From contig CAXXMV010000008.1 in the NCBI GenBank assembly GCA_963662285.2, positions 1,184,001 through 1,248,000 on the forward strand: a stretch of 64,000 nucleotides of DNA, read 5' to 3'. This DNA comes from a bacterium (GTDB lineage: Bacteria; Hinthialibacterota; Hinthialibacteria; Hinthialibacterales; Hinthialibacteraceae). The notes below the pieces were generated by a model. It made no database searches, was not told the DNA's origin, and saw nothing but the letters and a program-made list of their open reading frames with translations. The position numbers and the translations under genes are program-made. This document shows positions 34,257-47,002 of the stretch, in pieces. Within the stretch, counting starts at the first letter, position 1; the number at the start of each line of letters is the position of its first letter.

Positions 34257-34574
34257 TTATACTCGTTTCTGCAGCCCCAACATAATCGACCATACCCCGA
34301 TACAGGCGCCGTGATACCTTTTATTCTCATAGGGAATCGAATTCTTGAAGTTGATGTAATCCATATTTTCAATATATTTAGTAAGATTTTGCGTAACATC
34401 GGATGTCGAAACAAAAGCCCGGTAACGGTAATCGGCGGCTTCATCTTCAAATACGTCTGCGTCCGGGAATAACTCTTCAATATCGCCCTTACAGCGCGCT
34501 CGGACTATGCGGTGGTCAGGATCGTTCTTGTCGACGACAATGGATATGAATGATTTACTGGTGAATAACCACAT
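34257..34574 (-). CDS. Conserved-looking hypothetical protein
   Basis: AGGAGG SD; MWLFT..FISIV...VRAR...DYRYRA...MDYINFKNS. Confidence 0.75.
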   Translation of the reverse strand: MWLFTSKSFISIVVDKNDPDHRIVRARCKGDIEELFPDADVFEDEAADYRYRAFVSTSDVTQNLTKYIENMDYINFKNSIPYENKRYHGACIGVWSIMLGLQKRV

Positions 34575-34595
34575 GAGATGTGTTCCTCCTGGTTG

Positions 34596-35280
34596 TTATT
34601 TCATTCTAGTCGTTTTCGCTTTTTGGATTGTTTTCTGTTTTGTTTCGATGAAAGTGAATTCATACAATTCATCTTCTAAATTTACAATTAAATCCACTTG
34701 ATTTGATTCATTCTTTTCGGGGCATTTGGTGTTTTCGATTACGACGATTCCCCCAAACGTTGTATCCGGTTGAACTGTGGTTTTTTGTAGAATTGCGGCG
34801 TCGAGATCGGAGATCGTTTCCTTGTACCTGGATGCAACCTGCGCCATTTCAGCATTGGTCTGAGTTTGAGCCTGCATTAGTGGCGTTCAACGATCTCGCC
34901 GCTCCACTCAGCCCCACGCAGAACATCATGAGGGCGTATTGTTGCCGAGCGATACGTTCCAATTCTTCATAGGTATAGACTTTGAGATCGTCTCCATTTA
35001 CTTTGGCCGTAATGTTTTCTGTGGAGAAATTGATCGGCTTGTCCGTTTTGTTGGATAAGGAGATCAAAAATTCTGGTTTTACCGAAGAATCCCTCACCCG
35101 GTTGCATAATCCCACGGAAAGGATATTGCTTTTCTGGGAAACGATATGTTCCGCCCCTTTCACATATACGATTTCCTGGTCCGGAGACGGTTGGGGAACC
35201 ATGACGACCATTGTGGCGCAACCTTGCATAAACTGAAAACAGCATCCGGTTAGAAACAAGGATAGTGTGGAATATCTCAT
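34596..35280 (-). pseudogene. Lipoprotein gene split by a frameshift or deletion
   Basis: Signal peptide with lipobox-like MQGC; ORFs 34849-35280 and 34596-34877 overlap in different frames and read as two halves of one protein. Confidence 0.6.
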
Positions 35281-43815: not shown

Positions 43816-46800
43816 GATTTCAACTCTGCCCGATTGCCGGGAGCGCGATTCCATTCTGGACGACCTGGATGTCAACATCCTGGTGGAAGCAGCGGCGGGA
43901 ACCGGAAAAACCACCAGCCTGATCGGTCGGATGATGAATTTGATCCGAGAGGGGAAATGCACAGCCGAGGGTATGGCGGCAGTCACCTTCACGCGGAAGG
44001 CCGCCGCCGAAATGCGTTCCAGATTCCAGGTTGAATTGGAGAAAACTCTCCGCTCTGAATCCGGATTGGTTCATCAACGGATATCGGACGCACTCGGACA
44101 AATCGAGCACTGTTTCATCGGAACCATCCATTCCTTCTGTGCGCGCCTTCTTCGCGAACGTCCGGTGGAAGCGGGCGTGGATATCGCCTTCCGGGAGATC
44201 GATGATCTGGAAGATCGACTGATTCGCCGCGAGGCATGGGATGAATGGGTAGCCGGTCTTTATGCCTATGATGATCCCATTTTGACGGAATTGCAGGAAG
44301 CGGGATTGGAAATCGGCGCGCTGGTTTCCACGTATCAGAAAATGGCCGATTATCCCGATATTGATGAGTGGCCCGCTCCCCCAACGCCCATGCCCAACCT
44401 GCAGCCAATCCGCGAGGCTTTGCTCGATTACGCAGCCCATATGGAACAAATGAATCCAACTCTTCCCGACGATCCAGGGAACGACGAAATAATCCCGAAA
44501 TACCGAACGATTCTCCGGTTGGTAAAATACCACAATCTATCCGATCCCGTCTCCTTTATGAAAGTTTTGGAGGAATTCAAAAAGTCCAAGATCATTCAAA
44601 AGCAATGGCCCGGGGGAAAGAATCAGGCTCTTGCGGAGCGCGACCGATGGGACTCGTTTCGGGAAACGTACGTCATTCCCACCCAACAAAAATGGTATGC
44701 CCGCCGGTATGAAATCAGTCTGCGCGCCATTTTGCCTGCCATTAAAAGATACGAAGGAAAGAAAAAGCGGGACGGCGTGCTGAATTTTCAGGATTTGCTG
44801 CTCTTAACCGCTTCGATGCTGAAACGCTGGCCGTCGGTTCGGCGGTATTTTCAACAACGAATATCCCGTCTTCTGGTGGATGAATTTCAGGATACCGATC
44901 CCATCCAAGCCGAAATCATGATGTTGCTGACCTGCGAGGATATCTCGGAGAAGGATTGGAGGCGCTCCCATCCACGAGCCGGTTCCTTGTTTGTCGTGGG
45001 AGACCCGAAGCAATCGATTTACCGGTTTCGCCGGGCCGATATTGTAACCTACAACCAAGTCAAAAAAATCATCCAACAGAATGGCGGAAGGATTCTTCAT
45101 CTATCGTCCAATTTCAGAACCGATCCAACCATTCTCGATTGGGTCAACCAAAAGTTCCAATCTCAATTTCCTGAAACAGAAACACCCTATTCGCCCACCT
45201 ACGTTCCGCTCCAACACGGGAAACCGCAAACCACTCTCCCAGATGAAGAAAAAATAAAAAAATTAACGATTCCTCAGGACAAAACCAATAAGAACGATTG
45301 TTCCCTTTATGAATCCTCGTTCATCGCCCGATGGATTCATGAGGAAATTCAATCGGGCCGGGCCCAGCCGGAAGACTTTATGATCGTTACTTACTTGACC
45401 AAAAATCTGAATCTCTACGCCCGGCAGTTGGAGAAATTTCAGATTCCATGCCAGGTTACCGGAGGCGACGCGCTGAACCAAGTGGAAGAATTGCGATTAC
45501 TGACCCTCTGCCTGACCGCCATCAATCAACCCTGGAATCCCATCGCGCTGGTGGGCGTCTTACGCAACGAACTATTTGGTTTCAGCGATTCCGAACTGTA
45601 TGCGTTCAAGAAACACGGAGGGGAATTCTCATACGGAGATACAATCCCCAGCGGTCTACCAGCTGAGGTTTACTCCAAATACAACGATGCGTTTACACAA
45701 TTGCGTTTATACCGAAGTTGGATCAAAACATTGCCTCCCTCCACAGCCATAGAGAAAATCTGCGATCGTTTGGGATTGTTCGCCTGCGGAAGCGCTTTTC
45801 CTGGCGCCAATCTACGCTGCGGTTGCCTGGCCAAGGCCATAGCCGTGATCCGGTCTTCTCCGGATCGATTTATCTCTATTGGCGATATCGTCGATTTCTT
45901 CCACCAATTGATCCAAAATGAAATCAAGTTGGATGGAATATCCGCCTCGCCGCCCCAAAAGTCCTTCGTGCGCATCATGAACTTGCACAAGGTGAAGGGA
46001 TTGGAAGCGCCGGTCGTGTTTCTGGCCGATCCTTCCGGAAAAACCAACCATGAGGCCGATCTTCATATCGACCGCCTTCAGGACGCCGCCAGGGCTTATT
46101 TGAAGATGGAGCAGGAAAATCCACAGTCCTATCATAGGAAATTACTCGCTCAACCGGCCGATTGGGATCGATACAGCGCGGAAGAACAACAGTTTGGAGA
46201 TGCGGAGAAAATCCGTTTGTTTTATGTGGCCGCCACCCGCTGCAAGCGGCAACTCATCATTACCCAGCGGGAAAAGGGCAACCATCATAATCCCTGGAAT
46301 TTCTTCAATTCCTATCTTGAAAACGTTCCCATTGTGGATTCTCCCGTAACATCGCCCCTATCAAAACTTGATCCAACATCCTGGAAGCAAAGCGATATCG
46401 ATTTGCAGATGGACTCTATAAGGAAGCGCTGGGAGAAAATTATCGTTCCTACCTATTCCGTTAATGCCATCAGCCGAATGGATCGCGATGAGGAATGGGA
46501 GCCTTCCTCCCGCGAGGAGGGAATCCAATGGGGAAACCTGATTCATGCCGTTCTCGAAGCGTTGATTCGAAATCCCGATTCAGCCCTGGAAAAAGTTGTG
46601 GCAAAATCCATTCGAAAACACAATTTGAATCCCGGCTGGCACGACGACGCGATTCGCCAAATTCAGACGGTTCAACAATCCAGCATCTGGCAACGCGCGC
46701 TCCGCTCCCCAAAGCGCTTTGCGGAAGTTCCGATCCGCATACAAGGAGCAAATCCTTTGCAAAACGATAAACCGCTGCTTCTTCGAGGCGCGATCGATCT

Positions 46801-47002
46801 GATCTTCCAGGAAAAAGACGGATGGGTATTGGTCGATTACAAAACCGATGGCTCGGCCCAAAACGACGTAGAACCGCTCGTTGAAAAGTATCGGAGGCAA
46901 ATCCAATCGTACGCCTGGGAATGGGAACGAATCACCGATAATCCAGTTGTGGAAAAGGGGATTTATTTTACGGAGATCGATCGGTTTGTAGAAGTGAATT
47001 GA
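43805..47002 (+). CDS. addA: AddA-like UvrD helicase-nuclease
   Basis: AAAGTGKT, TFTRKAA, TIHSFC, VDEFQDT, VGDPKQSIYRFR, HKVKGLE, YVAATR, GAIDL, VDYKT. Confidence 0.9.
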   Translation: MNDKISTLPDCRERDSILDDLDVNILVEAAAGTGKTTSLIGRMMNLIREGKCTAEGMAAVTFTRKAAAEMRSRFQVELEKTLRSESGLVHQRISDALGQIEHCFIGTIHSFCARLLRERPVEAGVDIAFREIDDLEDRLIRREAWDEWVAGLYAYDDPILTELQEAGLEIGALVSTYQKMADYPDIDEWPAPPTPMPNLQPIREALLDYAAHMEQMNPTLPDDPGNDEIIPKYRTILRLVKYHNLSDPVSFMKVLEEFKKSKIIQKQWPGGKNQALAERDRWDSFRETYVIPTQQKWYARRYEISLRAILPAIKRYEGKKKRDGVLNFQDLLLLTASMLKRWPSVRRYFQQRISRLLVDEFQDTDPIQAEIMMLLTCEDISEKDWRRSHPRAGSLFVVGDPKQSIYRFRRADIVTYNQVKKIIQQNGGRILHLSSNFRTDPTILDWVNQKFQSQFPETETPYSPTYVPLQHGKPQTTLPDEEKIKKLTIPQDKTNKNDCSLYESSFIARWIHEEIQSGRAQPEDFMIVTYLTKNLNLYARQLEKFQIPCQVTGGDALNQVEELRLLTLCLTAINQPWNPIALVGVLRNELFGFSDSELYAFKKHGGEFSYGDTIPSGLPAEVYSKYNDAFTQLRLYRSWIKTLPPSTAIEKICDRLGLFACGSAFPGANLRCGCLAKAIAVIRSSPDRFISIGDIVDFFHQLIQNEIKLDGISASPPQKSFVRIMNLHKVKGLEAPVVFLADPSGKTNHEADLHIDRLQDAARAYLKMEQENPQSYHRKLLAQPADWDRYSAEEQQFGDAEKIRLFYVAATRCKRQLIITQREKGNHHNPWNFFNSYLENVPIVDSPVTSPLSKLDPTSWKQSDIDLQMDSIRKRWEKIIVPTYSVNAISRMDRDEEWEPSSREEGIQWGNLIHAVLEALIRNPDSALEKVVAKSIRKHNLNPGWHDDAIRQIQTVQQSSIWQRALRSPKRFAEVPIRIQGANPLQNDKPLLLRGAIDLIFQEKDGWVLVDYKTDGSAQNDVEPLVEKYRRQIQSYAWEWERITDNPVVEKGIYFTEIDRFVEVN

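Follow-up and report, generated by a model that had tools for sequence, protein, structure and literature searches.

In PspF-pspA and NtrC-type loci, tandem dyad sites lie about 100 bp upstream of the -24/-12 promoter elements, and a site overlaps the promoter region of the regulator itself. The sensor domain decides what such a sigma-54 activator responds to, and we know of no sigma-54 activator whose sensor has a DHH/RecJ fold. Here we analyse a 64,000-nucleotide stretch of contig CAXXMV010000008.1 (GenBank assembly GCA_963662285.2, positions 1,184,001 to 1,248,000; hereafter the window) from a Hinthialibacterota bacterium, in which a bacterial enhancer-binding protein (bEBP) with a predicted DHH-fold sensor domain is encoded near an operon for a protein that fuses HIRAN and ARPP-1 domains. 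HIRAN and ARPP have been described as a conserved two-gene neighbourhood (Iyer, Burroughs, Anantharaman, Aravind 2022, Viruses 14:1977, PMC9503650), and that paper presents ARPP as uncharacterised but probably an enzyme domain, in which Cys and Gln are conserved, and proposes that it acts on sugar moieties, possibly via SRAP-like covalent links.

The evidence below strongly supports a real family of such bEBPs, whose members lie beside sigma-54 promoters with a palindrome pair about 112 bp upstream; this arrangement heads the operon in the window, and a second copy of the pair abuts the start of the bEBP gene. We consider it reasonably probable that the protein is a one-component sigma-54-dependent switch, in which the DHH-fold sensor bEBP controls the HIRAN-ARPP-1 operon via these palindromes.

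Results

The regulator and its sensor domain

An alignment-based scan of one genome per species identified 31 loci with bEBP homologues (L numbers below) in metagenome-assembled genomes (MAGs) labelled Omnitrophota, Planctomycetota/Brocadiia, Myxococcota, Hydrogenedentota, Thermodesulfobacteriota and Gemmatimonadales, whereas a scan of genome contigs with a single protein as query found no relatives. The genome that contains the window (7.29 Mb, 92.5% complete) encodes rpoN (sigma-54; match 1.2e-58) and about two dozen bEBPs, and the DHH-fold bEBP is present in a single copy with the following parts:

38880-40451, minus strand: sigma-54 enhancer-binding protein, 523 aa from M22, with DHH-fold sensor, AAA+ core and putative C-terminal helix-turn-helix (HTH) region (open reading frame (ORF), Pfam, homologue-placed start, ribosome binding site (RBS))
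39321-39818, minus strand: AAA+ sigma-54 interaction domain (Pfam PF00158, long-ORF residues 233-398)
39819-40451, minus strand: N-terminal DHH/RecJ/Cdc45-fold domain without DHH motifs, 211 aa (model and fold searches)

The long ORF spans 38880-40514 on the minus strand, and its start was corrected to M22 (ATG 40449-40451), which is almost certainly the true start: every homologue begins at the M22 equivalent and GAGAGG stands 8 nt upstream, so the gene was placed at 38880-40451. The 21 extra codons of the long ORF overlie a conserved DNA site. Residues 233-398 match Sigma54_activat (PF00158; E 1.1e-59, 201.3 bits against a cut-off of 20.2) and AAA_lid_14 was also detected. Walker A reads GPTGSGKE, and the loop motif GAYTGA is of the GAFTGA type of sigma-54 activators. 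No Response_reg match was found in the protein (Pfam, E ≤ 0.01). The best PADLOC match was RtcR_PspF2--CARF_AAA_HTH (2.9e-88), and because this alignment covers only profile positions 171-476 of 481, the CARF part (positions 1-170) is unmatched. At the other end it reaches profile position 476/481 and residue 521/523, across the putative C-terminal HTH region; Pfam HTH_8 was not matched at E ≤ 0.01. The NCBIfam RtcR model scored 245.6 bits against a cut-off of 650, over residues 233-470 only. The AAA+/HTH part is thus RtcR-like, although far below the RtcR cut-off.

The N-terminal domain presents a different picture. Residues 1-232 have no Pfam match at E ≤ 0.01, PF01368 and DHHA1 included, and no NCBIfam match. 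A profile of 30 homologous N-domains (the window plus 29 loci, with L030 dropped for an in-frame stop and the partial match L029 not included) gave chance-level matches to PDB sequences (E ≥ 0.48), with no DHH chain at E ≤ 10. An AlphaFold model built from the same 30-sequence alignment reached a predicted local distance difference test score (pLDDT) of 94.1 and a predicted template modelling score of 0.90, and its comparison with the PDB by Foldseek returned 23 matches at E ≤ 0.001, headed by PAP phosphatase, RecJ, RecJ-Cdc45, NrnA and DhhP (best 8a8k_B, E 4.7e-5, then RecJ). The best 37 rows from VIA-align had Z scores of 15.3-10.3 with 165-202 of 211 residues aligned; the top rows comprised PAP phosphatase, RecJ, RecJ-Cdc45/GAN, Cdc45 or replisome, the PF0399 DHH domain, PggH and one uncharacterised Helicobacter pylori protein, and the rows below this DHH set were unrelated alpha/beta proteins covering only about 105-125 residues. 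CARF chains are absent from the Foldseek and VIA-align lists, which DHH-family chains lead, although this does not in itself exclude a CARF relationship. In the ESM Atlas, 17/30 matches were clusters carrying PF01368 (on 30-49% of their members), with a best score of 0.93. Foldseek, VIA-align and the ESM Atlas thus agree on DHH, and the domain is confidently modelled as a DHH/RecJ/Cdc45 fold. The initial annotation had described a bEBP with an intact AAA+ core, no receiver domain and an N-terminus resembling a degenerate DHH fold; Pfam and the motifs confirm the first two points, and structure prediction with fold searches bears out the third.

A HMMER search of 1.84 billion representatives with the N-domain found 86 proteins at E ≤ 1e-3, nearly all of which carry it at the N-terminus of a 500-550-aa protein, as in the window; a k-mer homology search found only four proteins. 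After strands 1-5 the family reads GxDGAC, TS, CGVG, WYCGRxYL and SNT. The canonical DXD, D, DHH and D motifs, which we take to follow the corresponding strands in DHH enzymes, are absent. The domain runs directly into the AAA+ core, and no partner DHHA1/DHHA2 domain was seen with Pfam. Among 51 full-length representatives the best-kept residues are D/E17 (47/51), S38 (49/51), G63 (50/51), G65 (46/51) and W89 (49/51), and in the alignment and model the conserved residues follow strands 1-5, a pattern that speaks for a conserved, non-catalytic pocket.

The operon promoter and its palindromic activator sites

The sigma-54 promoter, the predicted activator sites and the operon are as follows:

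37317-37332, minus strand: box 1, sigma-54 promoter, perfect TGGCAC-N5-TTGCT, TGGCACTCCTCTTGCT (motif scan)
37447-37477, no strand: predicted activator site 1, TCATTTTTTGA + TCAAATAATGA, starts 20 bp apart, at a distance of 115 bp from box 1
40472-40502, no strand: predicted activator site 2, GCACATTTTGA + TCAATTATTGA, starts 20 bp apart, its end 21 nt upstream of the bEBP start codon
36901-37278, minus strand: g125, first operon gene, 125 aa, no named family (RBS GAAGGAGG, ATG 37278)
35356-36882, minus strand: HIRAN + ARPP-1 fusion protein, 508 aa (Pfam)
34849-35280, minus strand: g143, 143-aa putative lipoprotein, lipobox LTGC (0/31 related loci by tblastn)
34596-34877, minus strand: g93, 93-aa ORF, no family match (0/31 related loci by tblastn)
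34257-34574, minus strand: g105, 105 aa, kept directly after HIRAN-ARPP-1 in relatives

Perfect -24/-12 boxes are scarce (nine in the genome), and box 1 lies 1.5 kb from the bEBP stop; the box count within the window alone is not significant. The orthologous box in L002 is TGGCACCCCTCTTGCA, and the upstream regions of the window and L002 align over about 190 bp at 71% column identity, with activator site 1 conserved between them and a pair-to-box distance of 114 bp in L002.

The predicted activator sites consist of 11-bp palindromes, TCAA-N3-TTGA, in tandem at 20-21 bp start to start, upstream of sigma-54 boxes. The motif was read by eye from the 260 bp upstream of boxes and then used in scripted scans, in which a tandem pair was allowed at most two mismatches in all; boxes were scored over 11 positions with GG and GC fixed. 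The window has just two tandem pairs, both of them at this locus, and of the 27 in the whole genome only sites 1 and 2 have a box scoring ≥ 8 at 80-175 bp. Across 41 stretches (20 kb of the window, the 31 loci and nine further loci), 29 pair-to-box distances fell within 400 bp, 16 of them at 110-119 bp and two at 100-109 bp, and a pair at 109-116 bp from a sigma-54 box was present in the window and about a dozen related loci from several phyla. In L010 and L011, both Myxococcota MAGs, a single pair stands between two divergent perfect boxes, 110 and 109-112 bp away. The HIRAN/ARPP loci L007 and L032, seemingly boxless, have TGGCAC-N5-TTGT at 114 and 104 bp from a pair, and the boxes of L007/L072, L032, L067, L071, L073, L074 and L077 all read TTGT rather than TTGC at -12 (e.g. 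TGGCATCGTTCTTGTA), so scans that require GC at -12 miss the boxes of these relatives.

Pairs equivalent to site 2 stand directly before the bEBP start, with no divergent box, in L003/L081, L007/L072, L073 and L016; site 2 is a probable autoregulatory site. L069 has a palindrome pair, a box (TGGCATCTCTTTTGCA) at 115 bp and HIRAN-ARPP-1, but no bEBP in the 13 kb stretch that was analysed. The same genome encodes its sole DHH-bEBP on a different contig (in the stretch also numbered L003), where a perfect palindrome pair immediately precedes the RBS of the bEBP gene and no sigma-54 box adjoins it. L069 thus looks like a natural case of a regulator acting in trans, and a pair without a box at this bEBP gene implies that the pair at the regulator start belongs to the regulator gene itself.

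Box 1 heads five tightly packed minus-strand ORFs (37278 to 34257). That a perfect box heads this operon had already been recognised in the initial annotation, but its coordinates for the box were off by one base. For g125, the GTG at 37308 given by the ORF finder was rejected as start codon: the expected start site lies downstream of this GTG, and the ATG at 37278 matches the MAI.G start of the homologues. Such homologues stand directly behind the box in L002, L018, L019, L022 and L027 and behind a 71-aa ORF in L017; others occur in L063, L064, L068 and L073. A model of g125 (pLDDT 77) gave a best VIA-align Z of 5.8 (MqsR), then 4.0-4.8 for RelE/ParE/YoeB types, and Foldseek found no match at E ≤ 0.001 (best HigB, at 0.13); a RelE/ParE/MqsR-type fold is a lead only, because these Z scores are below a trustworthy level.

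The second protein of the operon matches HIRAN (PF08797; E 1.3e-13, 51.0 bits against a cut-off of 24.7) and ARPP-1 (PF20208; E 7.8e-82, 275.4 bits against a cut-off of 27, profile positions 2-297 of 297). Copies of g105 that are 58-74% identical follow HIRAN-ARPP-1 in L006/L071, L067, L073 and L074; in the ESM Atlas this protein matched unnamed clusters only, partly viral (low recognition, 1976). For the five operon proteins, a search of PHROGs and a search of PADLOC with 10 locus proteins gave only marginal matches, on HIRAN. A GGACT (gamma-glutamyl cyclotransferase-like) gene stands between g125 and HIRAN-ARPP-1 in L019 and L027, and beside the HIRAN-ARPP-1 operon of L027 an ADP-ribosylglycohydrolase (ARG) and inositol-monophosphatase fusion (247-2271) recalls the ARG association behind the ARPP name.

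Related loci across phyla

The window proteins were found beside bEBP homologues by tblastn as follows:

HIRAN-ARPP-1: 8/31 loci
g125: 6/31 loci
g105: 1/31 loci
addA: 3/31 loci, weak UvrD-type matches only
addB, and BrxA/BrxB: 0/31 loci each

To these can be added the phylum of the window itself, where 16 of 35 genomes carry ARPP-1, at 18 places in addition to the window. Seven of the 18 have a DHH-bEBP next to ARPP-1 (L067, L068, L071, L072, L073, L074 and L077; stretches of up to 13 kb, two of the seven being the same places as L006 and L007), and g125 and g105 were each found around four. The neighbourhood survey thus bears out the link between bEBP and HIRAN-ARPP-1 suggested in the initial annotation, and supports the HIRAN-ARPP-1 operon as a conserved target of the bEBP.

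Strong boxes are concentrated near the regulators. Counting boxes that score ≥ 10, 15 lie within 600 bp of bEBP genes (34.8 kb) against 15 in the other 383 kb, an 11-fold enrichment (Poisson p 2e-11, a value overstated since kin are not independent). RBS-bearing ORFs follow boxes at 40-95 nt in several cargo classes, listed here with the loci in which each was found:

g125 then HIRAN-ARPP-1: window, L002, L018, L019, L022, L027
conserved protein of about 70 aa: L015, L017, L020, L021, L026
AAA ATPases: L010, L011, L014, L016
SbcD-like phosphoesterase: L030
79-aa ORF then AAA_23 protein: L025

A Pfam scan of 189 neighbour ORFs showed varied neighbours, often of conflict type, such as AAA ATPases of about 650-750 aa, AAA_23/SMC-like proteins, Metallophos, Mrr, AbiEii, HsdM, PDDEXK_4 and NucS-like proteins. 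In Brocadiia/Planctomycetota loci the cargo begins with the family of about 70 aa (M.Q..V......PAY.V....EWE..A..LE..LN), which in L017 precedes a g125 homologue. The divergent boxes of L010 (13577-13863) and L011 would drive genes for an AAA ATPase of 646 aa and for a protein of 125 aa that is not related to g125.

Genomic context

The locus runs in the order BREX type 1 set (minus strand), five-gene operon (minus), radical-SAM (rSAM) gene (plus), bEBP (minus) and addB-addA-like pair (plus), with the following neighbours:

37622-38638, plus strand: radical-SAM/SPASM gene, between the operon enhancer and bEBP (Pfam)
BREX type 1 set, minus strand, all six members found: BrxA 32769-33362, BrxB, BrxC, PglX 25149-28583, PglZ 22069-24627, BrxL 20029-22059
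19095-20027, minus strand: TIR-domain protein, after the BREX set
16347-17654 (Metallophos) and 12868-16350 (AAA_23/AAA_27), minus strand: SbcD/SbcC-like pair, after the TIR protein

The rSAM gene, which was absent from the initial annotation, has as its best NCBIfam match a tungsten cofactor oxidoreductase maturase (173 bits against a cut-off of 380). It was found in 0/31 related loci by tblastn, and was therefore probably inserted into the regulator-operon unit; in L002, the enhancer and g125 directly follow the regulator, with nothing between. Inspection of the sequence by eye revealed no sigma-54 box for rSAM at the canonical distance from site 1.

The BREX type 1 set is the directly downstream neighbour of the operon and lies outside the regulator module. 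BREX, the TIR protein and the SbcCD-like pair in the window, together with many defence-type neighbours in related loci, provide a defence context, and in the reading proposed here the module would lie in a defence island next to BREX. The SbcD/SbcC-like pair of the window resembles the cargo behind DHH-bEBPs in other phyla (L030, L025). Where AT-rich sequence separates brxA from the end of the operon (GC 0.34 across 32001-34000), a small minus-strand ORF at 33440-33613 has an excisionase/MerR-like HTH look (LSVDEIASHLGIKCDTVYRWI). Directly after addA, an ArdC-N-like protein (47332-48219, plus strand) has weak zincin metallopeptidase matches; ArdC-N is a mobile-element type anti-restriction family, here adjoining the defence island. 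No tRNA genes were found in the window, and a scan for sigma-70 promoters and terminators gave background levels, including a 9/12 promoter-like site overlapping activator site 2 that is not evidential.

Alternative readings of the regulon and the sensor

Upstream of the bEBP start, on the opposite strand, lie a second candidate box and a helicase-nuclease gene pair:

40648-40663, plus strand: box 2, candidate weaker sigma-54 box, TGGTATGCCCTTTGCA (9/11 positions; 35-51 nt upstream of the addB ATG and 146 bp from site 2)
40699-43815 (addB-like) and 43805-47002 (addA-like), plus strand: helicase-nuclease pair (Pfam)

Both subunits carry PDDEXK_1 and the second carries UvrD-helicase/UvrD_C, with NCBIfam scores of 66.8 against a cut-off of 903.7 for addB_Gpos and 285.4 against 707.65 for addA_Gpos. 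If the same bEBP also drove addBA from box 2, with site 2 as enhancer in a divergent arrangement like pspF-pspA, end resection and HIRAN-ARPP-1 would be co-induced. Box 2 reads TGG at -24 and shows the complete TTGCA at -12, points away from the bEBP and lies 146 bp downstream of one of the only two pairs in the genome with a box at 80-175 bp; with 1085 boxes of its quality (≥ 9) in the genome, 0.014 would be expected on one strand of the 185-bp spacer, and L014 has a similar pair-to-box spacing of 149 bp. The 146-bp spacing nevertheless falls outside the peak at 109-116 bp, addB has a weak RBS, and the upstream regions of g125 and addB align locally with a score of 21 against a shuffled null mean of 20.6. 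The pair itself is accounted for as a property of the bEBP gene, as it occurs without a divergent box in the loci named above. Comparative data point the same way: none of the 31 homologue loci has addB, the addA matches are the weak ones listed, and five of five full-length addB orthologues of the same family (38-50% identity) lack a box ≥ 8 in the 400 bp upstream, while none of the 13 window query proteins, bEBP included, was matched in the 1.5 kb upstream of any of them. Boxes thus occur beside bEBP homologues and upstream of the L002 orthologue of the operon but not upstream of the addB orthologues, and the proposal in the initial annotation that addBA belongs to the regulon is not supported as a conserved link. 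The pair is the only AddAB-like one in the genome and no RecC was found (in an assembly 92.5% complete), so addBA is probably a neighbouring housekeeping gene pair, and we regard its membership of the regulon as rather unlikely.

Two other readings concern the signal. The N-domain could be a thiol or metal (redox) sensor like NorR or PexR, with Cys in the former DHH metal site and an operon that answers oxidative DNA damage. Among the 30 aligned sequences, C62 and C91 do not vary and C20 and C107 hardly do so; three of the four (C20, C62 and C91) come after strands 1, 3 and 4, the places at which the metal ligands of DHH enzymes presumably sit. PexR offers a precedent for a metal-based bEBP sensor. 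The wider set of 51 full-length representatives argues against a family-wide Cys-metal site, since C20 is kept in 32/51, C62 in 36/51, C91 in 30/51 and C107 in 34/51, unlike S38, G63, G65 and W89, which are kept in 46-50, and we consider redox sensing very improbable. Alternatively, the N-domain could be a partner-switch module held or released by a protein, without a small ligand, like the CARF domain of RtcR with RtcA/RtcB or PspF with PspA. Binding of RtcAB to the RtcR CARF domain is reported in PMC9650030. Cdc45, an inactive eukaryotic relative of the DHH fold, presumably works by protein contacts in the replisome. The cargo, by contrast, varies among loci (g125/HIRAN-ARPP, proteins of about 70 aa, AAA ATPases, SbcD-like) while the pocket residues of the N-domain stay conserved, which makes a cargo-encoded partner unlikely; a conserved host protein could still fill this role, and the partner-switch reading as a whole seems improbable to us.

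Discussion

In the reading that we prefer, a one-component switch opened by a ligand of the DHH-like domain, the bEBP would bind the palindromes as dimers and assemble into an active AAA+ ring. The DHH-like domain would keep the AAA+ core inactive until a signal is bound, as in RtcR, NorR and XylR-type bEBPs, and the likeliest signals would be nucleotides that bear a phosphate, short oligonucleotides or single-stranded ends of nucleic acids. The activated bEBP would then remodel the sigma-54 closed complex at 37317-37332, and site 2 may serve to repress transcription of the regulator gene. Once induced, HIRAN-ARPP-1 would recognise 3' ends of DNA through its HIRAN domain and act on a sugar moiety via ARPP, so that the module would provide an inducible response to DNA ends or lesions, or a defence against phages. 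DNA binding, inhibition by the N-domain, the kind of ligand and the repair or defence role are all drawn by analogy with RtcR, NorR and PspF-type systems (PMC7790460, PMC9650030, PMC12754779 and general background on these systems).

Several points weigh against this reading. Binding of the palindromes by the bEBP is deduced from co-occurrence only, and the loci that served to define the motif by eye overlap with those in which its copies were later counted. The DHH likeness is at the level of the fold, with no hidden Markov model match to Pfam or the PDB, and no function follows from a shared DHH fold. The regulator is not specific for HIRAN-ARPP-1, because 23/31 homologue loci lack it, and in the window the non-conserved rSAM gene separates regulator and operon. 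A box ≥ 10 within 600 bp is present in 15/31 loci and missing from 16/31, several of which have TTGT at -12 or a box further away. Finally, the loci include close kin (L018/L019/L022/L027, L010/L011 and L024/L025), and their ORFs were called by a crude greedy caller with errors (e.g. L021, L031).

A broader proposal, which we put forward tentatively and regard as doubtful, is that the family forms a hitherto undescribed class of multi-phylum sigma-54 cassette switches. A dead RecJ/Cdc45-like domain would sense a nucleic-acid-derived signal (a free end, nanoRNA/nanoDNA or pAp-like nucleotides from DNA damage or phage attack), act from a universal TCAA-N3-TTGA enhancer placed some 112 bp away from the promoter, and control interchangeable DNA-end-processing or defence cargo (HIRAN-ARPP-1, AAA ATPases, SbcCD-like), and may have recruited addBA here. 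The regulator, the 11-bp palindrome pair, the fixed spacing and the -24/-12 box would then constitute a portable regulatory unit. For the uncharacterised HIRAN-ARPP this offers a first regulatory handle, as the ligand that opens the switch would tell what ARPP responds to.

The initial annotation knew of no described system with this layout, in agreement with our full-text literature searches, which returned no paper combining enhancer-binding protein, DHH and sigma-54 and none linking HIRAN or DHH with sigma-54. In the HIRAN and ARPP neighbourhoods of Iyer et al. the two are separate genes, whereas here they are fused in one 508-aa protein, with a sigma-54 promoter, an activator site, a dedicated regulator, g125 and g105; the terms sigma, DHH, enhancer and AAA+ do not occur in the main text of PMC9503650. 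The locus resembles PspF-pspA and NtrC-type loci in its tandem dyad sites upstream of the box and its site at the regulator start, but differs in the site itself (TCAA-N3-TTGA), in a spacing near 112 bp across phyla and in the sensor domain. Like the WYL/BrxR/CapW-type regulators of defence islands, the bEBP is a sensor-plus-DNA-binding protein that accompanies variable cargo for conflict or repair, in this case adjoining BREX; unlike them, it is predicted to be an activator working via sigma-54 and ATP hydrolysis rather than a sigma-70 repressor, and it has a different fold.

With the DHH phosphoesterases (RecJ, NrnA, PAP phosphatase) and Cdc45, the N-domain shares a five-stranded alpha/beta core and the helices that follow it (Z up to 15.3 over 176-199 residues). 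It differs from the phosphoesterases in lacking a PF01368 match, DHHA1 and the DXD/DHH motifs and in being fused to a transcription activator, and it is probably non-catalytic, a property that we take Cdc45 to share. RtcR is a close parallel in architecture, as a one-component bEBP without receiver in which a Rossmann-like, nucleic-acid-related sensor precedes an AAA+ core and an HTH (putative in the window protein) and an adjacent repair or conflict operon is read from a sigma-54 promoter. The sensor in the window has a DHH/RecJ fold and is not recognised as CARF, the cargo is HIRAN-ARPP-1 instead of the rtcBA genes that RtcR controls, and no RtcA/RtcB family was found among the operon or flanking proteins. 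We therefore regard the protein as a new sensor variant of the RtcR-like one-component bEBPs, with a well-defined cis-element. Alongside RtcR, it would be a second case in which an ATP-driven activator guards genes for nucleic-acid repair or conflict, which suggests that sensors (CARF or DHH) have been swapped on a shared AAA+/HTH chassis.

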